From Nitrosospira multiformis ATCC 25196 (lineage in GTDB: Bacteria > Pseudomonadota > Gammaproteobacteria > Burkholderiales > Nitrosomonadaceae): 32,000 nucleotides of DNA. The DNA lies in contig NC_007614.1 in assembly GCF_000196355.1 (NCBI RefSeq), positions 390,001 through 422,000 of the forward strand. The letters are read 5' to 3'. Shown here piece by piece: positions 7,484 through 30,127 of the stretch. Within the stretch, counting starts at the first letter, position 1; each line of letters opens with the position of its first letter. The position numbers and the translations under genes were made by a program. The notes below the pieces were generated by a model that was not told the origin of the DNA, made no database searches, and saw nothing but the letters and a program-made list of their open reading frames with translations.

Positions 7484-7501
7484 ATGAGTCTCGTGATAGC
7501 C

Positions 7502-8263: not shown

Positions 8264-8320
8264 GTTCAGTTCCTATCATGAATGCCAACTACTACAGGGA
8301 TTACCGGTCGGGGGATTTTT

Positions 8321-9055
8321 ATGAGTGACACGGGCATTGTGCACCTCGAGAATGTTTCCAAAGATTACATCCTTGGTGAGCAGAAAGTCCAGGCATTGAA
8401 AGACATTACGTTAGATATCGCCTCCGGCGCTTTCCTCGCTATTGCAGGTCCATCCGGCAGTGGCAAGTCAACGCTGCTCAATCTGATTGGTTGTATTGAT
8501 ACGCCCACCGCCGGCAAAGTTTTAATCAACGGTCAGGATATCAGCGGCCGTACTCCGGATGACCTGTCCGGGCTCAGGGCAAGAACTATCGGGTTTGTTT
8601 TTCAGACGTTCAATCTGTTTCCCGTTCTCTCTGCTGAGGAGAACGTCGAGTATCCGTTGCTGCAATTCAGGGAATTGAAGACAGCAGAGCGCCGCATCCG
8701 GGTTGCTGAATATCTCGATATCGTCGGTTTGTCCAGGTTTGCCCGGCATCGGCCGAACCAGCTCAGCGGAGGGCAACGTCAGCGTGTAGCGATTGCACGG
8801 GCACTGGCAACGCATCCGAAAATAGTATTGGCTGACGAGCCTACTGCCAATCTTGATCATGCGACAGGTGAAGGCATCCTGGAGCTGATGAAGAATATCA
8901 ACGACAAATTTGAGACAACCTTTATTTTTTCCACTCATGATTCGCGTGTCATGGCGATCGCGGACAATGTAATCCATATCCAAGATGGTCAGATCGTGCA
9001 ACGGGAAATTCGCAAGGAGAAATCCATGCACGTTATTGAACATAGGGATAGATAG
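8321..9055 (+). CDS. ABC transporter ATP-binding protein, LolD/MacB-type
   Basis: Walker A GPSGSGKST, signature LSGGQRQRVAIARAL, Walker B IVLADEPTANLD and H-loop STHD. I prefer the ATG at 8321 (MSDTGIVHLENVSKDY, preceded by GGGGGA) over the track start at 8282. Confidence 0.9.
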   Translation: MSDTGIVHLENVSKDYILGEQKVQALKDITLDIASGAFLAIAGPSGSGKSTLLNLIGCIDTPTAGKVLINGQDISGRTPDDLSGLRARTIGFVFQTFNLFPVLSAEENVEYPLLQFRELKTAERRIRVAEYLDIVGLSRFARHRPNQLSGGQRQRVAIARALATHPKIVLADEPTANLDHATGEGILELMKNINDKFETTFIFSTHDSRVMAIADNVIHIQDGQIVQREIRKEKSMHVIEHRDR

Positions 9056-9082
9056 ATGTGAAAAAGGTGACTTCCAAAGGTA

Positions 9083-10795: not shown

Positions 10796-10826
10796 TTGAT
10801 TTCAGAAGCAAGTACTTTATATACCT

Positions 10827-12038
10827 TTATATATTCTGTCGTAGCGCATCAACAACGGGGGTGCGCGAGATATGCCTCCCGGGAACGATAGCCGCCGATA
10901 CTGTTGCTGCTATACCGATGGCAAAGGATGCCAGCAAAACGCCGGGGACAATCTGGATGTGGGCTGTATAGCCAAGGTTGGAATTTGGAGGCGGCGGCAT
11001 CGAGATACCGATCGCAGAGATAATAAGCGCGAGGCCAATTCCGAGTCCGAGCCCGAGGCCGCTGCCGATCACTCCCAGTAGGAAGTTTTCCGTGATGATC
11101 AATTGGAATACTTCGTTTCTGCGGTTGCCCAGGGCCATCATTGTGCCGAATTCTCCTGTTCTTTCAAAAGCACTCATGTTGACACTGTTCAGGACCCCGA
11201 GCAGAACCATGATAAGGATAATCAGTTGCAGAAAACCTAGCTGGCGTCCATAAAGTTCTACCGTTTTTTCGTAGAAATCGTTGAGTTCGATCCACGTTTT
11301 GATCTCCAGCCCCAAAGTCTCTAACTGTTCTTTTAGCAGCCCTGCAATACGAAATGTATCGTCCGTTTTTTTCAGTGAGATGACCAGTGCATTAACGCCT
11401 TGCGTGCCCAGCAACTCCTGGGACGCGGCGAGCGGAATTCTTATTGCTCTAGCATCATAATCACTGGAGAAACTCTTGAATACGCCGACGACCTCCAGAT
11501 CAATGGTGTTTAATGCTCCTTCCAGTGTATTTGCCAGCAGGGTTACGTGATCGCCGGGTTTCAGCTTCAATTCCTGGGCGACGCCCACCCCGATAGCGAT
11601 ACCGAACTTATCCGTGTTTTGCAGTTGACGCCCCGAGATGATCGAGACGGAGCTTCCAAGCGCCGCTTCTTTCGCTGGTTCTACACCCTCTCCAATGATG
11701 GGAAGGTCAGCCCGGCCGTTATTGAGCAGGGCCGAGAAATTGAGTCGCGCCATTACGCTATCGATACCCTCGTTATTCATGATACGCCGTTTAATGGCCT
11801 CGTCATCCGTTATCAGATATCTCTCCGGGGCGTGCGCTCCGGCAGCAAAAAAACCTTCCTTGTAGACTTGCAGATGACCGGATCGAGAGTGGATAAGAGC
11901 CTCCGATAAAGTAACGAAAATATCGTTCACCCAGCCGCCAGCAAGAACAAGAGCTACCACGCCGCTCACGATCGCCGCCAGAGTCATTGCGGTGTGTGAT
12001 TTCTGTCGAAAAATATTTCGAAAGGCCAGTCTGAGCAT
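10827..12038 (-). CDS. ABC transporter permease, FtsX/MacB-LolC/E family (paralog 2)
   Basis: N-terminal LAFRNIFRQKSHT followed by TM1, a large periplasmic domain, and a C-terminal FtsX domain (...NMSAFERTGEFGTMMALGNRRNEVFQLIITENFLLGVIGSGLG...). At 403 aa its size is comparable to LolC/LolE. Confidence 0.85.
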   Translation of the reverse strand: MLRLAFRNIFRQKSHTAMTLAAIVSGVVALVLAGGWVNDIFVTLSEALIHSRSGHLQVYKEGFFAAGAHAPERYLITDDEAIKRRIMNNEGIDSVMARLNFSALLNNGRADLPIIGEGVEPAKEAALGSSVSIISGRQLQNTDKFGIAIGVGVAQELKLKPGDHVTLLANTLEGALNTIDLEVVGVFKSFSSDYDARAIRIPLAASQELLGTQGVNALVISLKKTDDTFRIAGLLKEQLETLGLEIKTWIELNDFYEKTVELYGRQLGFLQLIILIMVLLGVLNSVNMSAFERTGEFGTMMALGNRRNEVFQLIITENFLLGVIGSGLGLGLGIGLALIISAIGISMPPPPNSNLGYTAHIQIVPGVLLASFAIGIAATVSAAIVPGRHISRTPVVDALRQNI

Positions 12039-12054
12039 TATTCACTTTTCCGAA

Positions 12055-13284
12055 TTATCTATTGTGACGTAGCGCATCCACTATCTGCATGCGGGATGCC
12101 TTCCAGGCTGGGTATATACTGGCAGTGAGCGTTGCGCCGATCGCAAGCAAAAGGGATTCGAATGCAATATTCCACGTGACAAGTATTTCGCCCGTATAGC
12201 CACGGGTCGTCCCTGGGGGGGGCGGCATCGGGATCCCTATGCTCGATATCATGGCAGCCAGCGCTACCCCTATCGTAACCCCGAGCAGGCCGCCGAAACC
12301 GCCGAGCAGAATGCCTTCGCTTAGGAAGCGTCGGAGAACGTCGATGCGTCTGGCGCCAAGCGCCATATCAGTACCAATTTCCCCGATCCGCTCCATTACC
12401 GACATCGTCATGGCATTCAAAATGGCAAGAAGGATGATGAAGGCGATTATCAGCTTGAGGCCATGGATTTGTTTTGTAAACAAAGCCACGGTCTTATTGT
12501 AGAAATCAGCCAGGACATACCAGGGAACCACCTCGAAATCGCTCTTTTGCAATGAATCGCGTAATCTTTGGAGTACAGTATCGGTCTTCGCTGTGTCATT
12601 CAACAACACTACCCATACGTGAGAACCTTTGACCCGGAGGAGTTGGCGGGCTGTTTCGATCGGCATGCGTAGGGCGATATCGTCGTAAGACTTGTTTACA
12701 GTGGAGAACAATCCCCGGACAGTGACCTCAACCGCATTGACGCCCCTTGATGCGGTACTCGCCAATAGCACAACCTTATCGCCAATGTTTACGTTGAGGT
12801 TGCGGCCAAGACCCACACCTAGAATAATGCCCTTCGGGGCATCTACTGAAAGATTTTCACCCGCAGAAATTTCCACCGAGCCGCTGAGAATGGCCTTTTC
12901 CTCTGGGATGACTCCTTCTCCAACAAATGAAAGAGTTGCGTCTCCGTGACTGATCAGACCGCCAAAGGAGAGGCGGGGGATGATGGTCTTGATTTGAGCT
13001 GGACCGTTTGCCGGTTCCAGTTCAGGAATTGCATCCGGTAAAAGATAAGCGTATGGATCAGCTTTTCCTGCTTCCTGATAGCCCGGTCTGCTGATCTGGA
13101 TATGGCCGAGTTGCGACTGGATGGTGGCTTCCTGCATGCCCCAGAATATCCACTCGATAAAGCCCGCTGCAAGGATCAGGGCGATAATGCCAAACGTAAC
13201 CGCGCCCACAGCGATGGCGCTGCGACGCTTGTGCCGCACCATATTTCGAAATGCAAGCAAAAAGTCGAGCCGAATACGATCCAC
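12055..13284 (-). CDS. ABC transporter permease, FtsX/MacB-LolC/E family (paralog 1)
   Basis: It has the same architecture as the downstream paralog (LAFRNMVRHKRRS...; ...MSVMERIGEIGTDMALGARRIDVLRRFLSEGILLGGFGG...). The GTG start is preceded by AAGGA. It lies 16 nt upstream of the second permease gene. Confidence 0.85.
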   Translation of the reverse strand: MDRIRLDFLLAFRNMVRHKRRSAIAVGAVTFGIIALILAAGFIEWIFWGMQEATIQSQLGHIQISRPGYQEAGKADPYAYLLPDAIPELEPANGPAQIKTIIPRLSFGGLISHGDATLSFVGEGVIPEEKAILSGSVEISAGENLSVDAPKGIILGVGLGRNLNVNIGDKVVLLASTASRGVNAVEVTVRGLFSTVNKSYDDIALRMPIETARQLLRVKGSHVWVVLLNDTAKTDTVLQRLRDSLQKSDFEVVPWYVLADFYNKTVALFTKQIHGLKLIIAFIILLAILNAMTMSVMERIGEIGTDMALGARRIDVLRRFLSEGILLGGFGGLLGVTIGVALAAMISSIGIPMPPPPGTTRGYTGEILVTWNIAFESLLLAIGATLTASIYPAWKASRMQIVDALRHNR

Positions 13285-13338
13285 CCTCTATATCCTTCTG
13301 CTCAGTGCGCGCTGCCACATCGCGCTATCGCCCGGGAG

Positions 13339-13370
13339 AACAGGGGAACGAGTTAACAGGGAAACGAGTT
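13339..13370. repeat. Tandem 16-nt direct repeat AACAGGGGAACGAGTT / AACAGGGAAACGAGTT in the divergent permease/glycosyltransferase intergenic region
   Basis: Read directly. The two copies match at 15 of 16 positions. The repeat lies 55-86 nt upstream of the permease GTG (13284) on the other strand. Confidence 0.75.
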
Positions 13371-13474
13371 CTCTGCTTGCGCCTGGCAGCAGCGCACGAA
13401 CTGTAACGATAGGATCGGAATTGATCATTGTCGCTCAAGCCTTATCCAGGATAGACCGTTAATGCCGGATCGAG

Positions 13475-13498
13475 ATAATCCCTGCGCTGCAGGATTAT
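13475..13498. promoter_or_regulatory. Inverted repeat ATAATCC-N10-GGATTAT, a candidate operator about 135-155 nt upstream of the glycosyltransferase start
   Basis: Read directly: two 7-bp perfect arms. Confidence 0.35.
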
Positions 13499-13630
13499 GC
13501 TGAGAAAAATTCCATTGAGGCGACTTCCAATCTTACCCCAGGCGGAAGGTACGATGCACATCGATACGCCCCTGATTTCAGGATGGAAGTATGATACGAA
13601 ATAATTCTCAACGTAAAAGGTATTATTACC

Positions 13631-14857
13631 GTGACGAAGCCGCAAATGGAAACCGGAAATAAGCCGATTATTCTTCTAGTGGCTGAAGCAGTCACCCTTG
13701 CGCATTTCGGTCGAATCGTGACGTTGGCGAGAGCCCTTGATTCTAACAAGTATGAAGTGGTTGTCGCCTCGGATCCCCGTTATCTTGATTTAGACGCGCC
13801 ACTGAACTGCACGTTCCATCCTATTCGGTCTATTCCCTCAGCCGAATTTGCGCTAGCCCTTGCTCGGGGAAAACCAGTGTATAGCCTTGAAACCCTCTCC
13901 CGTTATATCGAAGATGATCTGGCGCTGCTTGATCTCGTCAGACCTGCTCTCGTCGTGGGAGATTTCAGACTATCTCTGGCCGTGAGCGCGCCGCTACGGA
14001 AAATTCCATTTGCCACCGTAGTCAACGCCTACTGGAGCCCCTATGCAGTGACCCGCTACCCTGTTCCCGATCTTCCGGTGACCCGCATTCTCGGTATCAC
14101 ACTTGCGCAAAAATTATTCGATATTATCAGACCCGTTGCCTTCGCCCTCCATGCCAGGCCCTTGAACCGGTTGCGTCGACGTTTCGGATTGACCCCTTTG
14201 AAGCAGGATATCAGAAACACATACACGTGGGCGGATTACACTTTATACGCGGACATCCCGGAAGTAGTGCCTGCGCTTAATTTACCTCCCCACCATCGCT
14301 ATCTTGGTCCAATACTCTGGTCCGCCGCCATCTCTCTGCCTGCATGGTGGGACTGCTTACCCGAAGACAAACCGGTGGTATTTCTAAGCCTGGGGAGCTC
14401 GGGCATGGCAGCACTTCTGCCAATGGCTCTTGCCGCCTTATCACAACTTGCGATCACAGTTGTCGTAGCCACTGCAAGAAAAATTACCATAGATGAGGTT
14501 CCAGCGAATGCATATGTTACTGATTACCTGCCATTGGACCGGGTTGCTTCACGCTTGAAAATAGTGATCAGCAACGGCGGCAGCCTGACTACGTATCAGG
14601 CGCTTTCAAGCGGAGTGCCGGTGATCGGCCTGTGTTCGAACCTGGATCAACTGCTGAATATGAATGCAGTGCAGCAGTTGGGGGCCGCTATTACCTTGCA
14701 TTGCGCTCGGATATCCGTCACTGACCTTGTGATGGCTGTAACCGCAATGCTGGATAATCCATCGTATGGACGAGCAGCAATCAAGATAAGCCAGATCTTG
14801 GCAGAATCGGATGCTAAACAGCGTTTTCGGGAATTTGTGGTGCAGGTACTTCATTAA
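13631..14857 (+). CDS. GT1-family (GT-B, UDP-glycosyltransferase / MGT-like) glycosyltransferase
   Basis: The C-terminal sugar-donor signature IVISNGGSLTTYQALSSGVPVIGLCSNLDQ fits the UDPGT pattern ([HNQ]-x-G...P...D-Q). The N-terminus LLVAEAVTLAHFGRIVTLARAL is typical of MGT/UGT enzymes acting on lipophilic acceptors. The start could be the GTG at 13631 or the ATG at 13646. Confidence 0.75.
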   Translation: MTKPQMETGNKPIILLVAEAVTLAHFGRIVTLARALDSNKYEVVVASDPRYLDLDAPLNCTFHPIRSIPSAEFALALARGKPVYSLETLSRYIEDDLALLDLVRPALVVGDFRLSLAVSAPLRKIPFATVVNAYWSPYAVTRYPVPDLPVTRILGITLAQKLFDIIRPVAFALHARPLNRLRRRFGLTPLKQDIRNTYTWADYTLYADIPEVVPALNLPPHHRYLGPILWSAAISLPAWWDCLPEDKPVVFLSLGSSGMAALLPMALAALSQLAITVVVATARKITIDEVPANAYVTDYLPLDRVASRLKIVISNGGSLTTYQALSSGVPVIGLCSNLDQLLNMNAVQQLGAAITLHCARISVTDLVMAVTAMLDNPSYGRAAIKISQILAESDAKQRFREFVVQVLH

Positions 14858-14912
14858 AAAAAGAAGGTGTAAAAACTTGCTGGATAATTGGCGGCGATAA
14901 GGAGACAACTGG

Positions 14913-15725
14913 ATGGATCATCAATACACAACACTTGAGAGAAATCGATATTTCGAGGTGCTTGGCGGTTTGAACGTGGAAAATCGCGGCGACAATAAAG
15001 TTGCGATGCTCTCGGAACTTGATATGACATCGGCGCAGGCATTGCGGACTTCCGTCGACCGGCAGACCGGCATCAAACCCTCGTACACTGCGATTGTAGC
15101 CAAGGCAGTTTCAATAGCCTTGCGAGAGCATCCATATGCTAACCGAATGGCAGTGGAACGTTTGTTCTGGAAGCGCATCCTGCAATTGCATGACGTGCAT
15201 ATGACAATTGCGGTAGAACGTGACCGGCCGGGTATCGAACAGGCCGTGTTCGCAGGTACGATCAGGGATACTGACAAGCTGGATGTAGCTGCCATCACCA
15301 AAGAGTTGCAAAGCTTGGCGCAGTCAACAGAAGAAACCAACGAACGCTGGCGACTGCTCAAGCGTATGGTTGAGACCCTTCCGCCCGCTTTGGCTCGCCG
15401 GTTAATATCGATTCCGCGTTGGCTTCCAGATCAGTGGATCAAGCATCGAGGCGGCTCAGTCATGATTTCATCGCCCGCCAAATATGGGGTGGATATGATG
15501 GTTGCGAACTGGCCATGGCCGATCGGCTATTCTTTCGGCTTGGTGAAAGACCGGGTGATCGCGGTGGAGGGTGCGGCGCAGGTAAGACCCACCATGGTTC
15601 TCACCATGAGTTTCGATCGTCGGCTAATGGGGGGAGCACCGGCTGCCCGGTTTTTTCGCACAGTATGCGAACATATAGAGCATGCGGAACGGGATATGGC
15701 TTTACCTGTGAACATCCCTTCATAG
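14913..15725 (+). CDS. Stand-alone 2-oxoacid dehydrogenase E2-type (CAT-fold) acyltransferase domain protein with a non-canonical active site
   Basis: At 270 aa it has no lipoyl or E3-binding domain. The C-terminal LTMSFDRRLMGGAPAARFF aligns to aceF LSLSYDHRVIDGATAARF from this same window, giving His to Arg and Asp to Gly. A strong SD (AAGGAG) precedes the ATG. Confidence 0.75.
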   Translation: MDHQYTTLERNRYFEVLGGLNVENRGDNKVAMLSELDMTSAQALRTSVDRQTGIKPSYTAIVAKAVSIALREHPYANRMAVERLFWKRILQLHDVHMTIAVERDRPGIEQAVFAGTIRDTDKLDVAAITKELQSLAQSTEETNERWRLLKRMVETLPPALARRLISIPRWLPDQWIKHRGGSVMISSPAKYGVDMMVANWPWPIGYSFGLVKDRVIAVEGAAQVRPTMVLTMSFDRRLMGGAPAARFFRTVCEHIEHAERDMALPVNIPS

Positions 15726-15810
15726 CAGCTTCGCTCCAAGGTTGGATCTGGCAACCCGCGAAGCGAATAACGTGCTGCATGAGACAGGAGTTCAATATCT
15801 CCAGCACGAC

Positions 15811-15839
15811 AATGAAAAGGCCACCCCGACAGGGTGGCC
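15811..15839 (-). terminator. Rho-independent terminator of the PEP-CTERM protein gene
   Basis: A perfect 8-bp GC-rich stem (GGCCACCC, 15819-15826, paired with GGGTGGCC, 15832-15839) with a 5-nt loop. On the - strand it is followed by TTTTCATT. It begins about 30 nt past the stop at 15870. Confidence 0.7.
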
Positions 15840-15869
15840 CGAAGAGTGAATGCGATAACCGCTGTTTAC

Positions 15870-16709
15870 TCAGGTGCGACGACGGCCCGTGAAGGCAAAA
15901 CCAAGCAGACCGATACCCATCAGAGCTAAAATGCCGGGCTCCGGCACTTCTCCGTGAGTAAAACCTTGTGATCCATCGGTTTGGATTACAAAACTCGATG
16001 CAGTGTCAGCCCCGGTGGCAACTCCGTCAAATGCTGCCGGCCGCGTATAGGATGGCGCACTCTGGCCGGGGAACTGAAGCGAGGCTTGAAACTGAGTGCC
16101 TGCCAACGCCGGATTCACATACGTGTTATTAGTGAAGGTGACCGTTCCGAACAGAAAACCGCCGCCCGTGCCGAGTACGGCCGGCCCGGGAATCGCACCG
16201 GTTGCAGAGAAGGTGCTGAAACCGCTATCCCATGTTCCACTCAGTATGTTCACCCCGTCGAGAAAGCCCGTCCCGGTGGACTGGTTCGCATCAGGACTGG
16301 AATCAAGGAAAATCCGCCATGATCCGCTGTTCGTGGTGATATCGATGCTGGAGCACCCATCGTTCGCGCAAGTCGCGGTCTGTGTAAGCGTCTGAAAGGT
16401 GGTTACTTCGTACGTTCCATTTTGGGAGCCAGGAGCCGCCACAAATAGATTATTCGTCGGGGAAGTGGTGTTGATGACACCTGCAAAGGCTTGATACGTC
16501 AAGGTGAAGGTATCGCTATCACCTTGCATGTTGGCACCGGTCAGGTCAAACCCCTGAACCCAGCCGCCACCATTTGAATGCCAGTCGAAGCCTGTAAAAT
16601 TTTGCAGTACTCCATCTGCGCTGAATGTGTCCAGGGTTGCGGAATATCCAATGGCGGGACCACCCAGCAATACTGCAGCCATTGATAAATTGATGAGCTT
16701 TTTATTCAC
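15870..16709 (-). CDS. PEP-CTERM-anchored secreted protein (Thr/Gly/Ser/Asn-rich; possibly related to flocculation-type PepA proteins)
   Basis: N-terminal signal peptide (MNKKLINLSMAAVLLGGPAIGYSA). The C-terminus has the VPEP motif, a hydrophobic helix and a basic tail (VPEPGILALMGIGLLGFAFTGRRRT), which is the textbook PEP-CTERM sorting signal. The GTG start is preceded by GGGGAGAG. Confidence 0.9.
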   Translation of the reverse strand: MNKKLINLSMAAVLLGGPAIGYSATLDTFSADGVLQNFTGFDWHSNGGGWVQGFDLTGANMQGDSDTFTLTYQAFAGVINTTSPTNNLFVAAPGSQNGTYEVTTFQTLTQTATCANDGCSSIDITTNSGSWRIFLDSSPDANQSTGTGFLDGVNILSGTWDSGFSTFSATGAIPGPAVLGTGGGFLFGTVTFTNNTYVNPALAGTQFQASLQFPGQSAPSYTRPAAFDGVATGADTASSFVIQTDGSQGFTHGEVPEPGILALMGIGLLGFAFTGRRRT

Positions 16710-16766
16710 GATTCTCTCCCCATAGCAATAACGATAAAAGAAGCTGTTTGTTTCAGGTTATACCCA

Positions 16767-16782
16767 AGCAATCCCTATGCCA
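16767..16782 (-). promoter_or_regulatory. Sigma-54 (-24/-12) promoter TGGCAT-AGGGA-TTGCT driving the PEP-CTERM gene
   Basis: On the - strand it reads TGGCATAGGGATTGCT, against the consensus TGGCAC-N5-TTGCW. The GG-N10-GC spacing is exact. The predicted TSS near 16756 gives a ~47-nt leader. An AT-rich tract lies upstream. Confidence 0.75.
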
Positions 16783-17377
16783 TCTTTTATATTATTTTAT
16801 TTAAGTTTTAATATCAGTTACTTATCAATCCTCGACTCTCTTGCATCCAGATTGAAGTCTCAAGGTGTAAGAAATATCGACAGCGCTCCTGCTTTTGTGC
16901 TTCTTCCAAAGCATTTTCGATACCTTTGTGAGGGCTTTTTCAGGAGTCGTGGTTGCTGGATATCCTGGTGCCAATCCCGTTGTGGGGCGATATAGAGTAT
17001 AGCCAATTACAGGGAGGGAATCATGGGACGAGTATTACGAGTATCATATGGCTGTTGCCCGTGAGGTCATAACATTTCCCGGCTTCCCGGATTAGAAGGG
17101 CAAGATTCCAAGAAAACTCAAGCAATGCCATCCGACCGGTCTTTCTCCGCCTGAAACACTTGCGGAGCAGGCCATTCGCGCCAGAAACAGCCAGCATTCC
17201 TTGCTGTAATCGAGATAAGACGGACCACTCTCGGGCTCGGGGATTCAAAATCCCCGGGGACTGCATCCTGAATCGACAGTCAGCAAATAGCCACCAGATT
17301 CCTCATTGTTCCAGACTTCGGAAGGAGACAAGTATTCCCCCAGACTTGCCAATGAATGAAGCGGGCGAACGGGCATA

Positions 17378-19432
17378 TTAAGCTCCTGCCCTCAGGCGCC
17401 AAAGCATCTGCTCCAGCTCGAGCCGGATAGACCGCGAAGCGGGTCTTTTGCCAGCCCCGATGCGCCCCATGAAAACGGCTCTGGTCGCGACTTCTTCTCC
17501 CAGAATATGACCAAGCCGTCGGGTCAGTGAGGTGGCGAGTGTAATGCATTGTTTTGTCTTCGAAAAGGGAATACTTTCACGACTATAACGTGCAAAAACC
17601 AGAGGAGTTATTTCCGGCTGCAGCTGCAGGCCAAGTTTAGTTGCTGTAAGCCAGAAGCGCTGCATAACGCGTCCTGCGCTCACGTAGTCATCGATGGATC
17701 GAGGCGCGTGAGGCGCCAGGATAACGAAATGCCCGCCACAGGCCATGGCGGGGATCAAATCCATCTGGAGACGCGGTGCCCAGGTTCCCGCCAAAAAAGT
17801 GTTAAAAAATTCGACACGATCCCAGCTTCCCATGATCCAATGCATTAACCGGGCTGTAAATGGATCAACTCCGAGTGCCTGGTCAGGTACTTTATCTGCG
17901 CTATAGCGGGAGTTCCATTGTATGATGGCGCGGTGCACCTGATAGGCTTCAGGCATAATCAGACGCAATTTTGCATTGTCGAACAGGAACCGGGCCATTT
18001 CCAGACGCCTGGAAAAACCCTCCAGCCACAAGATGTCGTACTGGGGTTTCACTGCAGCCTCTAGCGCACTCTTTTCTCTCCCGGTTAAAGGCCGCGTACT
18101 CATGGGGCGGCGTTGAACGCTGCGATAGCGTATATAAGGAATAAGCGGATCGGGCTTAAGATGCGGGTCACTCCCGAAATGGATATCGAAGGTTGGCTTC
18201 GTATCGGAACAATCGGGACGCCGCTGGATACTTGTTTTTAGGCCATGGCCCGTAGCGGCAATAGATATGGTTTCCAGCAATGCGCCGATTGAAATTTGAC
18301 TAGGACGTCCATCCAGGTCATAGACGCAGTGATCACGGGTGTCGAAACCGTGTATTGTCAGGGAATTGTCCCCGACGATCTGGAACCGCCAAGGCTGGGT
18401 ATTGTCTCCGCTCGGCGCCCACCTGGCAAGATCGAGGATTTGCTCGATTAATGTATATGACTTGAGCTCGGGTGGCCTTTTACTTTCGTCCTCACAGCCT
18501 GTCGATTCAGAGGGAATGATAGTACCCGTGGAAGAATAGGGCTCCGGATCTCCGAAGAGCTTGTTAGTATTTTTTTTGCTCAGGCGACGCCTTGCAATTG
18601 CGAGACTGAACTGCTGGAGAGGATTGCTGTTCCCGCCCGGACGCCAGGTACGGATCAGTTTATTGCGGTAGGCGTCGAAATGAACTCCATGTGGAGCGGC
18701 CAAAACCGTACCGCGATTCAGCAGGATCTTCAGAGCTTCAGTAGCTGCAATACCCGCGCAGAGTTGGCAACCCATTATCGTTGAGGGACCGCGGCGTTCC
18801 TTGAGATTGATGCTGGAGGGATCCAGCAGGTAACGGGCATGGAGACCAGTGGGCGCGAGTCCTATCAAGAAACGGAGGGCCTTTTCCACCTCGGGTAGAT
18901 CACCCCACTGAAAATACTCTTCGAAGGTCATTTTGCCAGGCAGGAAATTCAATAATGCCGATCCCATGCCTAAAGGAGCGGCCGTGATGGCGGGAATACC
19001 TCGCTCCTCACAGGCCGAAAACGTTACTGCGCGAGCTGAAAAGGCGAAAAAGTCGAGACCATCGATATACAGATCAACGTCCTCGAAAAATTCCGGCAAA
19101 TTATCCGGATTGACGCCCCGAGGAAAGATTTTGATATTCAGTTCCGGATTGATATCTCGTGCCATTGCGGCTAAAACCTCGCTCTTTGGCCGATTGAGGC
19201 TCGAGACCGTGGCGCCTACCTGGCGGTTGAAATTGACCAGATCAAAAACATCAAAATCCGCAATATGAAATGCGCCAATCCCCAGCCGAGCCAAGGTCAG
19301 CAGATGAATACCCCCTACGCCGCCCAGACCGGCAATTGCAATGCGTTTGTACCGTAGAATTTCCTGTTCGACAGGTGTTACCCACCCAATATTGCGGGAG
19401 GTGGCCTCACGATATGAGAAATCCTGAACCAT
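17378..19432 (-). CDS. Fusion protein: N-terminal ThiF/MoeB/HesA-type E1-like adenylyltransferase domain and C-terminal nitroreductase-fold (Acg/MoeY-like tandem) domain
   Basis: N-terminal Rossmann motif IAIAGLGGVGG, the FNRQ arginine-finger region and a DGLD motif. The C-terminal half begins LDLARWAPSGDNTQPWRF, the hallmark of Acg-type nitroreductase-like proteins. The overall ThiF+nitroreductase layout recalls mycobacterial MoeY (Rv1355c), from memory. Confidence 0.85.
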   Translation of the reverse strand: MVQDFSYREATSRNIGWVTPVEQEILRYKRIAIAGLGGVGGIHLLTLARLGIGAFHIADFDVFDLVNFNRQVGATVSSLNRPKSEVLAAMARDINPELNIKIFPRGVNPDNLPEFFEDVDLYIDGLDFFAFSARAVTFSACEERGIPAITAAPLGMGSALLNFLPGKMTFEEYFQWGDLPEVEKALRFLIGLAPTGLHARYLLDPSSINLKERRGPSTIMGCQLCAGIAATEALKILLNRGTVLAAPHGVHFDAYRNKLIRTWRPGGNSNPLQQFSLAIARRRLSKKNTNKLFGDPEPYSSTGTIIPSESTGCEDESKRPPELKSYTLIEQILDLARWAPSGDNTQPWRFQIVGDNSLTIHGFDTRDHCVYDLDGRPSQISIGALLETISIAATGHGLKTSIQRRPDCSDTKPTFDIHFGSDPHLKPDPLIPYIRYRSVQRRPMSTRPLTGREKSALEAAVKPQYDILWLEGFSRRLEMARFLFDNAKLRLIMPEAYQVHRAIIQWNSRYSADKVPDQALGVDPFTARLMHWIMGSWDRVEFFNTFLAGTWAPRLQMDLIPAMACGGHFVILAPHAPRSIDDYVSAGRVMQRFWLTATKLGLQLQPEITPLVFARYSRESIPFSKTKQCITLATSLTRRLGHILGEEVATRAVFMGRIGAGKRPASRSIRLELEQMLWRLRAGA

Positions 19433-19504
19433 TACCCGGGCCGATCAGTAGGAATAGGGGAGCAATTTGAGGTGAGCTATATATGATGTGAATGATAGCA
19501 TCAA

Positions 19505-19521
19505 TGCCAAATGCTTTGGCA
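19505..19521. promoter_or_regulatory. Perfect inverted repeat TGCCAAA-TGC-TTTGGCA in the 162-nt spacer between the FeeM-like and ThiF-nitroreductase genes
   Basis: Read directly: 7-bp arms and a 3-nt spacer, set in an AT-rich spacer. Confidence 0.5.
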
Positions 19522-19594
19522 GGGAAGACTGATGGAAAAATATCAGCTTCAAGGGCAGAAAAATTGCAGAAGTTAAAAAGCATGTACGTGAATT

Positions 19595-20413
19595 TCACGC
19601 AGAGGGTACCCAGACACCCCCGGTTTTCAGTCGCTCAGTAATGTTACCTTCATCCTCTGCGGAAAAAAAATAGGGGTAAAAAGATCTTTCGTTACCGTGT
19701 TGCTCCATCAATCCGCCGAATTTCCCAATTTGTTCGGCCATATATTCAAGTTTCACCCTAAGCAGCACCGCAGGTGCGTCAACACGGGTGCAAACTCGCT
19801 CTTCGGCAATCTGCCTGCATCCCAGCATTCTTTTATAGAAACCAGCGTGACGAGGGTTTACTTCTACCACCCAGTCAGTAAAACCATGGATATTTGCCGC
19901 ATAGATATAGCAAACATGAATCAGTGAAGCAAAAACCCGGGGAGGTACATTATCATCAATTGCAAGTCTGGAAGGTTCACACAGCCTTCGTCCCTGCGCC
20001 CGCAACTCATTCAGTTCGTCACCAAAATTCTCATCCGCGGGCAACGATGAATTGCCATCCACACACAAGGTCATGGTGCCTACTGTCTGGTTTGCGGTTT
20101 CAGCGATCAATGTAATCCTGTTAGGCTCGTTGATGACCGGCATATCAACAGAATAACCTCTCCAGGAATACCTTTTTTTTATGAGCAAGCTCGCGGCTTC
20201 ACGCTGATCTTCTGAATTAGCCATTCGAATATGAAAGCGCTGTTGATCGATAGAATGAGTGCGAACAGACTTGGAATCATGTTTCCCAATACAAATATCC
20301 TGCCACCGATAAGGAGACTCGAATGAAATTATCGCTTCGCTATCTTCACTATCATGAGGCAGAAAGTTATATCTGTGGGTAATGAGAGCATAAAATGGTT
20401 GAAAGATATGCAT
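19595..20413 (-). CDS. FeeM-like long-chain N-acyl amino acid synthase (GNAT fold), second and divergent copy in the island
   Basis: ...IRMANSEDQREAASLLIKKRYSWRGYS...TLIAE..NQTVGTMTLCVD....LPADENF..EL..LR..GRRLCEPSRLAID...VEVNPRHAGFYKRMLG resembles FeeM/NasY-type enzymes. The start is moved to the ATG at 20413 (MHIFQ..., SD GAGGA 8 nt upstream) because the track start (TTG at 20455) lies inside the sigma-54 promoter. Confidence 0.72.
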   Translation of the reverse strand: MHIFQPFYALITHRYNFLPHDSEDSEAIISFESPYRWQDICIGKHDSKSVRTHSIDQQRFHIRMANSEDQREAASLLIKKRYSWRGYSVDMPVINEPNRITLIAETANQTVGTMTLCVDGNSSLPADENFGDELNELRAQGRRLCEPSRLAIDDNVPPRVFASLIHVCYIYAANIHGFTDWVVEVNPRHAGFYKRMLGCRQIAEERVCTRVDAPAVLLRVKLEYMAEQIGKFGGLMEQHGNERSFYPYFFSAEDEGNITERLKTGGVWVPSA

Positions 20414-20454
20414 GTAGTTTATCCTCGTATAGCACTGAAGGTAAAAAACAAGCA

Positions 20455-20470
20455 AGCAATATCCATGCCA
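20455..20470 (-). promoter_or_regulatory. Sigma-54 (-24/-12) promoter TGGCAT-GGATA-TTGCT driving the FeeM-like / ThiF-nitroreductase operon
   Basis: On the - strand it reads TGGCATGGATATTGCT. Its half-sites are identical to those of the promoter at 16767-16782. The predicted TSS near 20444 gives a ~31-nt leader to the ATG at 20413. Confidence 0.75.
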
Positions 20471-20523
20471 TCTTTATATCGTGAGCTTTATCAGCTATCT
20501 AGCTATGTGTGTTACCGCACAGA

Positions 20524-20556
20524 CTGGATAACTGTCTCCTGTTGGAGACAGTCCAG
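20524..20556. promoter_or_regulatory. Strong inverted repeat CTGG-ATA-ACTGTCTCC-TGTT-GGAGACAGT-CCAG. It is a candidate enhancer (bEBP) site for the sigma-54 promoter and/or an RNA hairpin downstream of prsT.
   Basis: Read directly: a 9-bp perfect core plus a 4-bp outer stem. Its centre is about 97 nt upstream of the predicted TSS at ~20444 and about 115 nt downstream of the prsT stop. No U-tract follows it on either strand. Confidence 0.45.
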
Positions 20557-20656
20557 ATGCGATATCAAGTAGCTCACTGAAATTAAAAGGATTATTGATG
20601 TCGCCGGGATGAGACAGGGGTTGGTCGATAAGCGACTGATTTTGCGTGTTTTCACA

Positions 20657-23446
20657 CTACTGTATCCGCTCAAGAAGAGCTCTGGCTTCATCTATGCCTG
20701 AAAAGGTTTTTCCAGTAGCCAGAATTTGCTCAAGCTCTTTACGCGCCTGGCTTTTATTGCCAGATTTAACCAGTGCGGATGCAAAATGGTAGCGGATTTC
20801 CCCTGCTTGAGGCGCCAAAGAAGCGGCTTTCTGTAAAAGCGGTAGAGCTCGCGCGATATTTTCCTGCTCCAGCAGTACCCAACCCAGCGTATCCAGTACT
20901 GCCGGGTTTTCCGTAGCAAGCTGGTATGCCTTTTCCGCGTATTCCAAGGCCCTGGGGTCCTTTTGACGCTGATAAGCGGTAGCCAGGTTATTAAGCGCCG
21001 GAGCAAATTTCGGTTGTTCTTTCAGGACAGTTTGATATTGCTCCACTGCAGCAGCCAGTTTTCCCTCTGTGAGAAACGTATCCGCGAGGTACATTCGAGC
21101 AGATAAATCATTCGGGTGTTTTTTCAGCCATTCGATCAAGCGAAGGTCTGCCTCCTTATCTTTTCCAGCCTGCCTGAGCGATGCGTGCAGCTTGATCAAC
21201 AAGGGCGAGGTTTTATTAACCGCGAATGCCTGTTCATAGGCGCTTGCGGCAAGCGCGGGTTTTTTCTGTTTCAGCAACAGATCGCCCTCTGCTATATAAC
21301 CTGCGGGTGACCCTTTATGCTGCTTCTGAACTTGGCGCGCCATCGCGATTGCTTTCTCATAATTACCCTGTTCTGCTTCAATGTCGATCTGCGCCAATTG
21401 CGCAGCCAGATAATCGGGTTTTATAGCCAGCGATTTTTTCAGCGCATCTGATGCGGCGGAGAGGTTCCGCATTGCCATATGAATGGAGGCGATGCGGAAT
21501 TGAACAAGCGGGGATTCCGGTTGTACGACAGCGAGCCGGGCGTAGCTCTCCAAGGCACTCGATTTGTCATTGTTAGCTAGTTGAGCCTGTGCCAGTAAAT
21601 CCAGCACAGCGGAGTCCTTGGAATGTGTCCCCTCCAGTTTCTTGGCGAGAGCCAGGGCCTTCTGCTTTTCGCCCAAACGCAGATAATGTGTTCCAAGCAG
21701 GATGGCCGGCTGAAGGACATCCGGATTTGCTTGCATTGCACGCTCCAGCCACTCGGTAGCCTTCTGGTTCTGTCCCTGGTTGACAGCAAGACCCGCCAGC
21801 GCGACCATGGCCTGGATATTCTTCTTGTCCTTTTCCAGAATTGCTTCAAAGCGTTTTCTTGCGGCATCCGGTTTTTTATCCTGAATGTCGAGTCGTGCGA
21901 GATTTGCTATAGTCGGAAAATAGTTTGGTTGAATAGCAAGCGCTTTCTCAAAGCTCGCTCTTGCATTCGCTATATCGTTCTTGCCAAGATACACGCCGCC
22001 TTTCAGGTTTTGAATGAGGGGATTATCAGGATTCTCCTTCTCCAATGCCTTTACCGCGGCGAGCGCCTTGTCGAATTCTTTGAGGCGTAAATGGGTCATG
22101 ACCAGCAACACTCCTGCCCGCGGCGATTTGGGGTCGAGTTTTGTCGCTGTTTCCAGTTCGGAGATGGCCCGGGCGTTTTCCCCCTGCCCCAACCTGCTCA
22201 TGCTTAAAGCGGTATGAAGCATCGCACTTCTCGGTGCGATATCGCTGGCCATTTCAAAGTATTCCGTGGCTTTCGCAAAATCCTTGGCTTGCATGTAAGC
22301 TTCCCCAGCCAAGGCGAATAACTGGGGATCCTCTTTCACATTTTTGAGCGGTGGGGTCAGGATGTCGATCGCGCGTTTCGTCTCGCCATTTTTTAACAGC
22401 GCGGAAGCAAGCAGCTTGCGCGCGTAGATGTTTCCGGGATCTTTCTCCAGATAATGTTTCAGGTGTTGTTCCGCCTGGGGCATGGATCCGAGAGCAAACT
22501 GGACTGCGCCCGCGAGCAACACGCTGGGCATGTGATCTGGCGACTTGCTGAGTACCTGCTGGAGCGATTCCAGCGCGGCAGCGGGCTTTTGCTGGCTGAA
22601 ATCGAGCAAAGCCTGGGTATAAAACACCATCAAGCTGGGACTGATCTTCCGTGCCGCGTCGATATCTGCCTTTGCCGCCTCGAACTTGCCCGTTCCAATT
22701 TCGATGAATGCTTTGTTGATATAGGCAATGGCTGCGTTCGGTTTCAGCTTTACCACCTGGTCATACGCCGCCAGAGCTTCCCCGGATTTGCCTTGCATCC
22801 GCAGAAGGTCGCCCCTGAACAACCAGGCCTCGACATTTTGTGGGCTCCGGGAAACCGCCTGCTCCGAGAAATGGGTTGCGCCTTCCACATCCCTTTGAAC
22901 CAGGGAATATTTCGCCAAGCCGATCAGTGCGTCGGCAGAATCGGGATTGTGTCCGAGCGCTTGCTCGAACAGTGCCTTTGCTTCCGCGGTCTTGCCCAAT
23001 CCGAGCTGTGCATTCCCCCGGAGCGTAAGTATCTGCGCCGACTTTGTTTTGTCGGCCAGTTCTTTCGTTTCATCCAGGATTTGTTGATAGGCGCCTAGCC
23101 TGAGCAGGGCTTGTCCGAGTTCAGGCAGCACCTTGCCCGCATCCATTCCCAAGCTCAACGCCTTGCGAAGCTCCTTCTCCGCGGACTGAAAATCCCCAGT
23201 CTTGTTGTATATTGCGCCAAGCAGATATCGCGCTTCCGAATTATCCGGGTTCTGCTGCAAGGCATTTTTTAGCTGGATGATGGCTGACTTGTGATCCCCG
23301 CTTTCTTCGTAGCGCTTCGCATCCGCCATCAGTTTCACCGGATCCACCGCTTTGTTACAGCCTTGCATGCTGCTCACGGTGAGGGCGGCAGCGATTGCAA
23401 GCGTCAGCCCAGTCTTTTTTAAAACAGTCTTTCTAAAAGCGCGCAT
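20657..23446 (-). CDS. prsT: PEP-CTERM system TPR-repeat lipoprotein PrsT
   Basis: About 929 aa of tandem TPR repeats behind a lipoprotein signal (LTLAIAAALTVSSMQGC). The size and architecture match the PrsT family (TIGR02917 as I recall). I prefer the ATG at 23446 (MRAFRKTVLKK, SD GGAGAAGGGA) over the track start at 23488. Confidence 0.85.
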   Translation of the reverse strand: MRAFRKTVLKKTGLTLAIAAALTVSSMQGCNKAVDPVKLMADAKRYEESGDHKSAIIQLKNALQQNPDNSEARYLLGAIYNKTGDFQSAEKELRKALSLGMDAGKVLPELGQALLRLGAYQQILDETKELADKTKSAQILTLRGNAQLGLGKTAEAKALFEQALGHNPDSADALIGLAKYSLVQRDVEGATHFSEQAVSRSPQNVEAWLFRGDLLRMQGKSGEALAAYDQVVKLKPNAAIAYINKAFIEIGTGKFEAAKADIDAARKISPSLMVFYTQALLDFSQQKPAAALESLQQVLSKSPDHMPSVLLAGAVQFALGSMPQAEQHLKHYLEKDPGNIYARKLLASALLKNGETKRAIDILTPPLKNVKEDPQLFALAGEAYMQAKDFAKATEYFEMASDIAPRSAMLHTALSMSRLGQGENARAISELETATKLDPKSPRAGVLLVMTHLRLKEFDKALAAVKALEKENPDNPLIQNLKGGVYLGKNDIANARASFEKALAIQPNYFPTIANLARLDIQDKKPDAARKRFEAILEKDKKNIQAMVALAGLAVNQGQNQKATEWLERAMQANPDVLQPAILLGTHYLRLGEKQKALALAKKLEGTHSKDSAVLDLLAQAQLANNDKSSALESYARLAVVQPESPLVQFRIASIHMAMRNLSAASDALKKSLAIKPDYLAAQLAQIDIEAEQGNYEKAIAMARQVQKQHKGSPAGYIAEGDLLLKQKKPALAASAYEQAFAVNKTSPLLIKLHASLRQAGKDKEADLRLIEWLKKHPNDLSARMYLADTFLTEGKLAAAVEQYQTVLKEQPKFAPALNNLATAYQRQKDPRALEYAEKAYQLATENPAVLDTLGWVLLEQENIARALPLLQKAASLAPQAGEIRYHFASALVKSGNKSQARKELEQILATGKTFSGIDEARALLERIQ

Positions 23447-23612
23447 GTAAATTCCCTTCTCCGAATCAGCGACCAGGTCCACCTTCAAACTTATGCATTC
23501 CTGCAGCCGGCACTCAACTTTACACCTCTGCGCAATCCCCGTGAAACGGGGACCATCCGGTTTTCAGGAGGACAATCGATACCGAGGCTTTCCATTGGTT
23601 TTGCCACTACTA

Positions 23613-27997: not shown

Positions 27998-28051
27998 TGT
28001 CGGAGAGCACGGCAGCTTGAAGTGATTGCATTGGATATATTCAGAGACGGC

Positions 28052-30127
28052 ATGACCGATTCCAGAGCTTCCGGTCAATTCCTCAATCGAGAGGTTGGCC
28101 AGATTGAATTCAACCGAAGGGTGCTTGCCCAAGCGGAAAATGAGGAAACCCCCCTTCTTGAGCGCCTGAAGTTTCTTTGCATTGTCAGCAGTAACCTGGA
28201 CGAGTTCTTCGAGGTTCGTGTCGCGGGGATCAAGGAGCAGATCAAACTCGATACACGCGGTTTTGATCCAGCTGGCATGCTACCGCATCAGATATTCAAA
28301 TTGGTGAGCGAGCAGGCGCATGCGCTGGTGGCGCGGCAGTACGCGTTGCTGAACCAGCAGATTTTGCCCGGCCTTGCCAATGAGGGAATCCATTTTCTGC
28401 GGCGCGCGACCTGGAATGACGCACAGCGCACGTGGATCAAGTCTTACTTCTTTCGCGAAATGATGCCGGTGCTGACTCCCATCGGTCTTGACATTTCACA
28501 CCCCTTTCCTCGAGTGCTTAACAAGAGTCTGAATTTTGCAGTAGAACTCGAGGGCAAGGACGCCTTCGGGCGTAATTCCGGAGTTGCCATCGTGCAGGCC
28601 CCGCGCGTGCTGCCCAGGCTGATTCAGTTGCCGCCTGAAATCAGCAGCAGCACTTATAATTTCGTGTTTCTCTCTTCCATCCTGCATGCACACGTAGGGG
28701 AATTATTCGCCGGGATGAATGTGCTCGGCTGCTATCAATTCCGCGCCACGCGCAATAGCGATCTGTTCGTGGATGAGGAAGAGGTCAAGAATCTGCGCAT
28801 TGCGCTACAGGGTGAACTGCCGCAGCGCCATTTCGGCAACGCGGTGAGACTGGAAGTGGCGGACAACTGTCCCCCGCATATGTCGGCCTTTCTGCTGGAG
28901 CAGCTCGGCCTTGCCCAGGAGGATTTCTATCAGGTAGAGGGGCCCGTAAACCTGGCGCGGATGATGCACGTCTTCGAACGTATAGACCGGCCTGATCTGC
29001 GATATCTGTCTTTCATCCCGGGTTTGCCGCTGACGCTGCAAAAGAAAAAAGCGTCCGACATTTTTCAGTTGATTCGCAAGAACGATATCCTGTTACACCA
29101 TCCCTATCAGTCGTTTCAGCCGGTGATTCATTTTCTCCAGCAGGCTGCAACCGATCCCGATGTGGTCGCCATCAAGCAGACCGTATATCGTACCGGTGCC
29201 GATTCCCAGGTCATGACCGCCCTTATCGCCGCTGCGAGCAGCGGAAAAGAGGTCACCGTGGTGGTGGAGCTGCTGGCCCGGTTTGATGAAGAGGCCAATA
29301 TCAACTGGGCCAGCCGGCTGGAGAATGTGGGGGCGCATGTGGTGTATGGAGTGGTAGGCCATAAGACACATGCAAAGATGGCAATGATAGTGCGGCGTGA
29401 GGAGGGCAGCCTTCGGCGTTACGTGCATGTCGGCACCGGCAATTATCATGCCAGCACCGCCCGGCTTTATACCGATTTCGGCTTGTTCAGCTGCCAGGAG
29501 GATTTCTGCGCCGATGTGAACGAGGTTTTCACGCAGCTTACGGGACTGGGCAAGGCGGGAAAACTCAAATATCTCTGGCAATCTCCCTTCAGTTTCCATA
29601 GCCAGATGATCGCCTCCATTGAGAACGAAGCCCAGAATGCGAAAGCAGGAAAGCCTGCCCGAATTATCGCAAAGATGAACGCATTGCTGGAACCGGGGGT
29701 TATCAAGGCCCTCTATGCCGCTTCCGAGGCAGGCGTAAAGATCGATCTCATTGTTCGCGGGGTTTGCGCCCTGCGGCCCGGCATCAAAGGGCTCTCGGAG
29801 AACATTCGGGTACGCTCCATTATCGGCCGCTTTCTCGAGCACAGCCGGATTTTCTATTTTCGCAATGGCGGTGCTTACGATATCTACCTTTCCAGCGCCG
29901 ACTGGATGGATCGAAACTTTTTTCGAAGGATCGAGATCTGCTTTCCGGTTCTGGAGCCAAAGCTGAAAAAGCGCGTGCTCGAGGAAGGTCTGTATGTATT
30001 TCTGAAGGACAATTGCCAAGCCTGGGAAATGGACAGCGAGGGTCGTTATCATCTGAGGCAGTCCGGTCAGCGCAAGAAGCAAAGTGCTCAGGAGACGCTG
30101 CTGATGGAACTGGCCGCCGCGCAATAG
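28052..30127 (+). CDS. ppk: Polyphosphate kinase 1
   Basis: FLNREVGQIEFNRRVLAQAE..TPLLERLKFLCIVSSNLDEFFEVRV, then ...GHKTHAKMAMIVRRE (the phosphohistidine region) and two C-terminal PLD-like domains. I prefer the ATG at 28052 (691 aa) over the GTG at 28022. Confidence 0.95.
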   Translation: MTDSRASGQFLNREVGQIEFNRRVLAQAENEETPLLERLKFLCIVSSNLDEFFEVRVAGIKEQIKLDTRGFDPAGMLPHQIFKLVSEQAHALVARQYALLNQQILPGLANEGIHFLRRATWNDAQRTWIKSYFFREMMPVLTPIGLDISHPFPRVLNKSLNFAVELEGKDAFGRNSGVAIVQAPRVLPRLIQLPPEISSSTYNFVFLSSILHAHVGELFAGMNVLGCYQFRATRNSDLFVDEEEVKNLRIALQGELPQRHFGNAVRLEVADNCPPHMSAFLLEQLGLAQEDFYQVEGPVNLARMMHVFERIDRPDLRYLSFIPGLPLTLQKKKASDIFQLIRKNDILLHHPYQSFQPVIHFLQQAATDPDVVAIKQTVYRTGADSQVMTALIAAASSGKEVTVVVELLARFDEEANINWASRLENVGAHVVYGVVGHKTHAKMAMIVRREEGSLRRYVHVGTGNYHASTARLYTDFGLFSCQEDFCADVNEVFTQLTGLGKAGKLKYLWQSPFSFHSQMIASIENEAQNAKAGKPARIIAKMNALLEPGVIKALYAASEAGVKIDLIVRGVCALRPGIKGLSENIRVRSIIGRFLEHSRIFYFRNGGAYDIYLSSADWMDRNFFRRIEICFPVLEPKLKKRVLEEGLYVFLKDNCQAWEMDSEGRYHLRQSGQRKKQSAQETLLMELAAAQ

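Follow-up and report, generated by a model that had tools for sequence, protein, structure and literature searches.

Does a common promoter core mean that two neighboring genes answer to the same activator? The question is raised by a 32,000-nt stretch of the Nitrosospira multiformis ATCC 25196 genome (contig NC_007614.1, positions 390,001 to 422,000; the window), in which a gene for a FeeM-like N-acyl amino acid synthase and the PEP-CTERM protein gene pepA are each preceded by a sigma-54 promoter element with the same half-sites. A sequence-only reading of this DNA had placed both genes under one enhancer-binding protein (EBP). Our analysis points elsewhere: the FeeM-like gene probably has a sigma-54 promoter with its own two-palindrome enhancer, served by an activator distinct from that of pepA.

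The promoter and the genes around it are as follows.

20455 to 20470, minus strand (reads 20470 to 20455): sigma-54 −24/−12 promoter element TGGCATGGATATTGCT, from a motif and weight-matrix scan.
20422 to 20426, minus strand: ribosome-binding site GAGGA, 8 nt 5' of the FeeM-like ATG.
19595 to 20413, minus strand: FeeM-family N-acyl amino acid synthase-like protein, 272 amino acids (PF21926, E 1e-53, 182 bits, cutoff 27).
20657 to 23488, minus strand: prsT, XrtA/PEP-CTERM system TPR protein, 943 amino acids (TIGR02917, 952 bits, cutoff 312).
17378 to 19432, minus strand: ThiF/E1-like adenylyltransferase fused to an Acg-type nitroreductase-like domain (ThiF-NTR), 684 amino acids, from profile searches.

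The element, TGGCAT-GGATA-TTGCT, carries GG at 20469-20468 and GC at 20457-20456, exactly 10 nt apart, and fits the sigma-54 pattern TGGCAC-N5-TTGCW. It is located within the 244 nt that separate the prsT stop codon (20657) from the FeeM-like ATG (20413), at 41 nt from that ATG, and is oriented toward the FeeM-like gene. prsT is directly upstream of the FeeM-like gene on the same strand, and the FeeM-like gene is certainly the target of this promoter. Transcription is predicted to start near 20445, which would leave a 5' untranslated region of about 31 nt. As had been claimed from sequence alone, the 16-mer is present with half-sites equal to those of the pepA promoter (TGGCATAGGGATTGCT) 3.7 kb away; it lies on the minus strand, and the common context extends further than the claim had it (AAAGATGGCAT...ATTGCTTG). 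The idea that the two promoters form one duplicated cassette was rejected, as the extended AAAGA...CTTG similarity is not common to relatives.

Matches of this quality are rare. On our sigma-54 weight matrix the element scores 18.8/20.5 bits, the top score in the window. Across 300 Markov-random 32-kb sequences, the best score per sequence averaged 14.2 bits (95th percentile 17.0, maximum 18.9), and about one sequence in 300 attained 18.8 bits. Three sites in the window reach at least 16 bits against 0.13 expected, a quantitative result that bears out the earlier judgment that such sites are unlikely to arise by chance. Two look-alikes had been called weak, and they are: the one at 8201-8216 reaches 12.1 bits with TAGC at −12 and falls in a hairpin within the part of a divergent LolA-like gene that encodes the signal peptide, and the one at 23494-23509 (CGGCTGCAGGAATGCA) has the GG and GC dinucleotides only and scores below 8 bits. 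The further assertion that no other comparable site exists in the window does not hold, given the third high match:

29438 to 29453, minus strand (29453 to 29438), antisense in ppk (28022-30127): TGGCATGATAATTGCC, 16.1 bits.

This site is a perfect TGGCA-N6-TTGC, in frame with the ppk codons GGC AAT TAT CAT GCC (G-N-Y-H-A). Inspection found no enhancer box and no credible downstream gene near it. We rejected it as a regulatory element because the conserved G-N-Y-H-A codons account for it, and it is probably a by-product of conserved coding sequence. At about 17120-17140 on the minus strand, in the 600-nt gap between the ThiF-NTR gene and the pepA enhancer, GGATGGCATTGCTTGAG resembles the half-sites GATGGCAT and TGCTTG fused without a spacer; so built, it could not function as a −24/−12 element and may be a chance match or a relic.

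Conservation of the element was assessed in 80 loci (L001-L080) from species-representative genomes that encode FeeM-like relatives, taking as the score the best same-strand sigma-54 match within 350 nt upstream of the FeeM-like gene. All seven Nitrosospira-type loci score at least 14 bits, compared with 0.8% of background 360-nt windows. Their −24/−12 elements are:

L001: TGGCATGGATATTGCT
L002: CGGCATGGATATTGCT
L003: TGGCATAGATATTGCT
L004: TGGCATAAAACTTGCT
L006: TGGCACAAAAATTGCT
L007: TGGCATGGTTCTTGCT
L011: TGGTACAAAAATTGCT

The metagenome locus L118 also keeps the element, and the ribosome-binding site is kept as ACGAGGAG in L001 and L002. Among the Nitrosospira-type loci the spacers differ (GGATA, AGATA, AAAAC, AAAAA, GGTTC), the aligned flanks have diverged, and several of the seven genes are paralogues without prsT upstream, a combination that fits selection on the element itself. 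Because position, orientation, score, and conservation in both orthologues and paralogues agree, the site at 20470 to 20455 very probably works as a sigma-54 promoter that serves the FeeM-like gene.

The element is not kept everywhere. A strong site occurs about 620 nt upstream of the gene in two Nitrosomonas metagenome-assembled genomes (MAGs; L009, L019) and one metagenome contig (L125). We found no sigma-54 site within 350 nt upstream in about 70 Oxalobacteraceae loci, L005, and L013, and none at the FeeM orthologues of Methylophilaceae, Herbaspirillum, and Ca. Tenderia. The suggestion that orthologous operons might retain a −24/−12 element is thus borne out in the Nitrosospira-type loci and fails in these others. 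Sigma-54 control of the FeeM-like gene, as predicted from such elements, is kept within the Nitrosomonadaceae; it is lineage-restricted, not universal.

Upstream of the −24 element lie three palindromes.

20533 to 20550, no strand assigned: proximal box A TGTCTCCAACAGGAGACA, 62 nt from the TGGC, its center about 73 bp upstream of the −24 GG.
20599 to 20616, no strand assigned: distal box A TGTCTCATCCCGGCGACA (one mismatch), 128 nt from the TGGC, its center about 139 bp upstream of the GG.
20506 to 20521, no strand assigned: third palindrome TGTGCGGTAACACACA (type TGTGCG-N4-CGCACA), set between box A and the −24 element.

Box A is an 18-nt palindrome, TGTCTC-N6-GAGACA, present in two copies 66 bp apart in the window and twice in its closest orthologues. 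Allowing one mismatch, it occurs upstream of 5 of the 80 FeeM genes (about 0.11 expected) and twice in the remaining 1.14 Mb, with a chance rate of about 0.002 per kb. A gap of 115-132 nt separates the distal copy from the −24/−12 element in the window, L001, L002, L004, L009, L019, L118, and L125; L006 and L011 have this copy with two mismatches. The proximal copy stands at equal distance in L001, L002, and L118 and is represented by an GGAGACAGT-type half-site in L004, L006, and L011; L007 also has a proximal copy or such a half-site, and the proximal gap ranges from 51 to 65 nt. The stems are constant in sequence and the loops variable, the pattern of a protein-binding site rather than an RNA hairpin. 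We also considered and rejected the palindromes as prsT terminators, because no T-run follows either copy and because the distance to the promoter holds in paralogue loci that lack prsT (L004, L006, L007, L009, L011, L019). An Rfam search of 15700-20700 returned nothing meaningful. The box A copies are best read as protein-binding sites tied to the promoter: two position-locked palindromes in the arrangement of upstream activator sequences, each a predicted EBP site. The third palindrome is kept in the window, L001, L002, and L003, all prsT-linked orthologues, and is absent from paralogous FeeM promoters; it may be bound by a second regulator.

The pepA promoter has a different upstream element.

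16767 to 16782, minus strand: pepA sigma-54 promoter TGGCATAGGGATTGCT, 16.6 bits.
16866 to 16882, minus strand: PEP-CTERM box (box B; Haft motif 1, predicted PrsR site) TGTCGATATTTCTTACA, 83 nt upstream of the pepA TGGC.
15870 to 16709, minus strand: pepA, flocculation-associated PEP-CTERM protein (NF033554, 166 bits, cutoff 80; PF07589).
15818 to 15840: terminator of pepA.

For proteobacterial PEP-CTERM genes, Haft et al. 2006 (PMC1569441) described a three-part regulatory region, which they assigned to PrsK/PrsR: motif 1, 17 nt long with TTTACA at its end, lies 32-92 nt upstream of a sigma-54 motif 2, and the spacer between the two measures 62.8 ± 10.6 nt. Work in Aquincola mapped the pepA start and showed that pepA, unlike prsT, requires RpoN1 (PMC9850573); Francke 2011 (PMC3162934) makes no mention of PEP-CTERM. 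Before PEP-CTERM genes in the window, L001, L002, L003, L006, L011, L118, L177, and L178, we find box B (TGTCGA-N5-TTTACA), a gap of 61-83 nt, and a sigma-54 site, which matches Haft motif 1, spacer, and motif 2. Box B was not found upstream of the window's FeeM promoter with up to two mismatches allowed, nor upstream of any of the 80 FeeM genes. The two enhancer types show no crossover: box B stands before PEP-CTERM genes only and box A before FeeM-like genes only, a split seen in pepA and six other PEP-CTERM genes of related loci on one side and in the FeeM-like promoter and eight others on the other. They differ in length (17 versus 18 nt), half-site sequence, copy number, and distance to the promoter (61-83 nt versus 51-65 plus 115-132 nt). 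Thus pepA carries motif 1, whereas the FeeM promoter lacks it and is followed by a gene that does not encode a PEP-CTERM protein.

What do the identical half-sites then tell us? Because every sigma-54 promoter shares them, they indicate the same sigma factor and nothing further. Activator specificity lies in the enhancers, and the enhancers differ, so the sequence does not predict control by one EBP. The co-regulation by one activator proposed in the sequence-only reading is not supported, and a single activator of relaxed specificity acting at both promoters is unlikely. In such a model this activator would be PrsR, with both promoters in a single PEP-CTERM regulon. The cores are near-identical and read by the same sigma factor, the FeeM-like gene follows prsT directly and lies at 3.7 kb from pepA, prsT lies near FeeM-like genes in most of the 80 genomes, both enhancers start with TGTC and finish with ACA, and a genetic link between N-acyl amino acid synthases and PEP-CTERM has been published. 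Against this, the enhancer types segregate without exception, the boxes differ in all four properties listed above, and lineages with box B before PEP-CTERM genes have FeeM genes without a sigma-54 site. We therefore regard PrsR as an improbable common activator.

A 17-mer resembling the PEP-CTERM box, TGTCGAATTTTTTAACA, also occurs inside the ThiF-NTR gene (17800-17816, minus strand), at the equal codon position in L003, L007, L177, and L179. It encodes the conserved RV(E/D)FFNT, in which both Phe codons are always TTT TTT, and no sigma-54 site lies within 190 nt downstream of it. We rejected these 17-mers as regulatory, since the conserved codons account for them; their recurrence most likely reflects codon constraint.

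Metagenome contigs provided a wider view of box A. We scanned them for TGTCTC-N8-GACA followed, after a gap of 110-138 nt, by TGGCAY-N5-TTGCT, and recovered 95 loci, of which six or seven are followed by FeeM-family genes. This is far above the chance share of so small a family. The matches include proteins 33-49% identical to the window protein (L088, L129, L157, L161, one of them from a TARA ocean sample) and the close relatives L118 (87%) and L125 (63%). Many of the remaining matches fall within long open reading frames (ORFs) and are probably chance. Others precede genes for an acyl-CoA ligase, glycosyltransferases, a WbaP-like sugar transferase, UDP-galactopyranose mutase, an EBP, or a kinase; GGDEF-like proteins, judged by C-terminal sequence only, are also found downstream. 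No PEP-CTERM protein appeared among the downstream ORFs inspected; one match to the C-terminal PEP-CTERM pattern (L114) was discarded as it lies inside a long ORF and looks spurious.

Several of the metagenome matches have an EBP gene within about 1-5 kb. The EBP signature GAFTGA was found neither in the window nor in L001-L080, and by this measure the activator of the FeeM-like promoter is not encoded in the window. PrsT is in the window by profile match; PrsK and PrsR lie outside it. N. multiformis encodes all three, with prsK (Nmul_A2672) and prsR (Nmul_A2671) far from prsT (Nmul_A0376) (Haft, PMC1569441). A literature search of incomplete coverage yielded no publication on the control of N-acyl amino acid synthase genes by sigma-54, no report of the TGTCTC-N6-GAGACA enhancer, and no paper assigning the TGTCTC/GAGACA enhancer to an activator.

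FeeM-like genes in other lineages have upstream regions of different kinds. In the Nitrosomonas-type loci (L009 7217-8000, L019 1572-2420, L125 11030-10255 on the minus strand), box A and the strong sigma-54 site precede a leader of about 600 nt. This leader is 85% identical among the three, contains no convincing ORF, and ends in a strong terminator hairpin (z −4.3, then U7) immediately 5' of the FeeM start codon. An Rfam search of it gave nothing meaningful; the leader could be of the attenuator type or a separate small RNA. Many Oxalobacteraceae loci (L012-L080) share a stretch containing GGGAACTT about 30-100 nt upstream of their FeeM-like genes. In Janthinobacterium, Duganella, and Massilia these genes have no sigma-54 sites, and prsT is convergent, 3-4 kb downstream. 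These features suggest a different, lineage-specific regulator. In a gammaproteobacterial MAG (L179), box A occurs at 6319-6336 and 6742-6759, in an 800-nt region between divergent FeeM-like and ThiF-NTR genes.

A different objection grants that the −24/−12 element is functional and denies that the palindromes are its enhancer. They would instead be operators for a repressor or another factor, or remnants of prsT termination, and the activator would act from another site or from solution. The L179 locus, where box A occurs twice next to FeeM and ThiF-NTR and no sigma-54 site is present, fits this proposal. So does the capacity of the palindromes to form hairpins just downstream of prsT, and the third palindrome at 20506-20521 suggests that more than one protein may bind the region. 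However, the distance from box A to the promoter is kept in the six paralogue loci without prsT, no T-run follows the palindromes, and the stem sequence is conserved rather than co-varying. Enhancer pairs about 66 bp apart at 70-140 bp upstream are usual for NtrC-type activators, and the two sites have just this geometry. We consider the non-enhancer explanation quite unlikely. That the site is a chance or nonproductive one, with the FeeM-like gene read from a sigma-70 promoter or by read-through from prsT, is highly improbable: one study (PMC4591121) reports that E. coli commonly has intragenic and nonproductive sigma-54 sites, and the window itself holds a good-scoring site without a plausible target at 29438-29453, but the score of the FeeM-like element is reached by only about one in 300 random windows, the element persists in seven of seven Nitrosospira-type loci, paralogues included, despite diverged flanks, and it has a position-locked partner in box A.

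How far does the transcription unit extend? The FeeM-like product, judged by its profile match and its similarity to the FeeM structure 2G0B in the PDB (E 1e-10), is a member of the FeeM-type N-acyl amino acid synthase family. A profile search gave no TIGR03694 match for it, and BLASTP showed no similarity to the TIGR03694 paralogue in the window. Its gene is adjacent to ThiF-NTR in L001, L002, L003, L005, L007, L118, and L176-L179, and in Ca. Tenderia, Methylophilaceae, Herbaspirillum, and the gammaproteobacterial MAG the pair is tandem or divergent. PEP-CTERM, PrsT-like TPR, or polysaccharide-export genes lie near the pair in three of these four lineages, with none at L179. The two proteins also align to separate portions of one NCBIfam model, NF011425 (989 residues); no fusion protein was found among the top 120 ThiF-NTR homologues, and the NF011425 matches are the only evidence of fusion. 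The FeeM-like and ThiF-NTR genes make up a conserved functional pair.

ThiF-NTR is probably the second gene of the unit, co-transcribed with the FeeM-like gene, a plausible arrangement because the two share a strand and have no conserved terminator between them. pepA follows about 600 nt beyond ThiF-NTR. The 162-nt spacer between FeeM and ThiF (19433-19594) is nearly identical between the window and N. multiformis Nl18 (L001) and more conserved than the surrounding coding sequence; for comparison, the FeeM protein is 77% and PrsT 88% identical to Nl18, and ThiF-NTR shares 94% identity with an N. multiformis protein. The spacer holds sigma-70-like hexamers, TTGGCA-16-CATCAT (19510-19483), and ThiF-NTR may have an additional promoter of its own there, or another regulatory element may be present. 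Of the earlier claim that the promoter drives a FeeM-like/ThiF-nitroreductase operon, the FeeM-like gene is thus retained and the operon becomes less firm. The associated claim, that lipid chemistry is tied to the PEP-CTERM regulon, divides similarly: the gene linkage to PrsT/PEP-CTERM stands, and had already been published (Craig, Cherry & Brady 2011, as cited in PMC11072679), and the common activator is not supported. A methanotroph mutant in such a synthase gene has been studied (PMC11072679).

Several points weigh against a dedicated FeeM enhancer and activator, or limit what can be built on the evidence for them. The sigma-54 matrix is approximate and follows a Barrios-type consensus. Many of the supporting loci are orthologous and hence are not independent observations. 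The FeeM genes of Oxalobacteraceae, Methylophilaceae, Herbaspirillum, and Ca. Tenderia have neither box A nor a sigma-54 site. L179 has box A twice but no good −24/−12 element, so the box-A-binding protein need not be an EBP everywhere. Both enhancer types share the TGTC...ACA frame, which leaves some probability for a single activator of relaxed specificity, and the TGTC...GACA frame also occurs near unrelated EBP genes in metagenomes; as a common EBP site type, it cannot by itself name the activator. Finally, the highly conserved spacer and its sigma-70-like hexamers make the reach of the operon less certain.

Weighing these points, we still favor a separate enhancer and activator for the FeeM-like promoter and propose the following mechanism. 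RpoN holoenzyme would sit as a closed complex at 20470-20455, silent until an ATP-dependent EBP acts. We infer that an NtrC-family activator binds the two TGTCTC-N6-GAGACA sites, about 73 and 139 bp upstream, and remodels this complex; the 66-bp separation of the palindromes would suit two dimers joining to form the active oligomer. The transcript would begin near 20445, cover the FeeM-like gene, and probably read on into ThiF-NTR. The lipid module and the PEP-CTERM cargo gene would both need sigma-54, most likely with different activators, and different activators would mean different signals for the two.

The FeeM-like promoter can be compared with three known systems. With the PEP-CTERM cis-region (Haft, PMC1569441) it shares the sigma factor, a near-identical core (TGGCAY-N5-TTGCTT), the neighborhood of prsT and pepA, and an upstream element that likewise begins with TGTC and ends with ACA. 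Unlike that region, it has no motif 1, carries an 18-nt palindrome in two copies at other distances, and stands before an acyltransferase gene instead of a PEP-CTERM gene.

Promoters of the NtrC/NifA type have tandem palindromic upstream activator sequences, such as the NifA site TGT-N10-ACA. The FeeM-like promoter has the same architecture, a core plus two TGT...ACA dyads about 70-140 bp upstream, and its dyads are likewise spaced by a near-integral number of helical turns. It differs in its TGTCTC half-site, its 12-nt inner spacing, the lack of a nearby activator gene, and its target, a lipid/secondary-metabolite module rather than nitrogen metabolism. As with PEP-CTERM-linked N-acyl synthases, the window has a GNAT/LuxI-like acyltransferase within a PEP-CTERM/PrsT/exopolysaccharide locus; the sigma-54-driven gene, however, is a FeeM-subfamily member (PF21926) rather than one of TIGR03694, and its partner is a ThiF/nitroreductase fusion.

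Elsewhere in the window, the region from 6500 to 15725 resembles a lipid or glycolipid export cluster:

6500 to 7321: TIGR03694 exosortase-associated acyltransferase, 261 bits (cutoff 112).
7502 to 8263: LolA-like protein.
8282 to 9055: ABC ATPase.
9083 to 10795: DUF1302 protein.
10827 to 13284: two FtsX/LolCE-like permeases.
13631 to 14857: UDPGT/EryCIII-type glycosyltransferase.
14913 to 15725: 2-oxoacid-dehydrogenase-type acyltransferase.

In Ca. Tenderia (L176), ThiF-NTR is followed by an MMPL transporter and a 408-amino-acid glycosyltransferase of the same Pfam families.

Bacteria of soil, sediment, and activated sludge widely carry the PEP-CTERM/exosortase system, which is required for floc formation. 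A tentative extension of our results is a second sigma-54 regulon, defined by a "FeeM box" (TGTCTC-N6-GAGACA) and a dedicated activator, in Nitrosomonadaceae PEP-CTERM loci and in some uncultured marine and freshwater bacteria. If it exists, its lipid product could partner exosortase-processed proteins as acceptor, anchor, or signal; and if the lipid is the missing partner, the same sigma factor would gate cargo and lipid alike, but through separate signals. The comparison corrects an easy mistake, that a common −24/−12 core implies a common activator. The distinct enhancer makes the regulatory logic testable and supplies two defined DNA probes for finding the activators, and it leads to the prediction that cargo can be expressed uncoupled from lipid synthesis, and the reverse.

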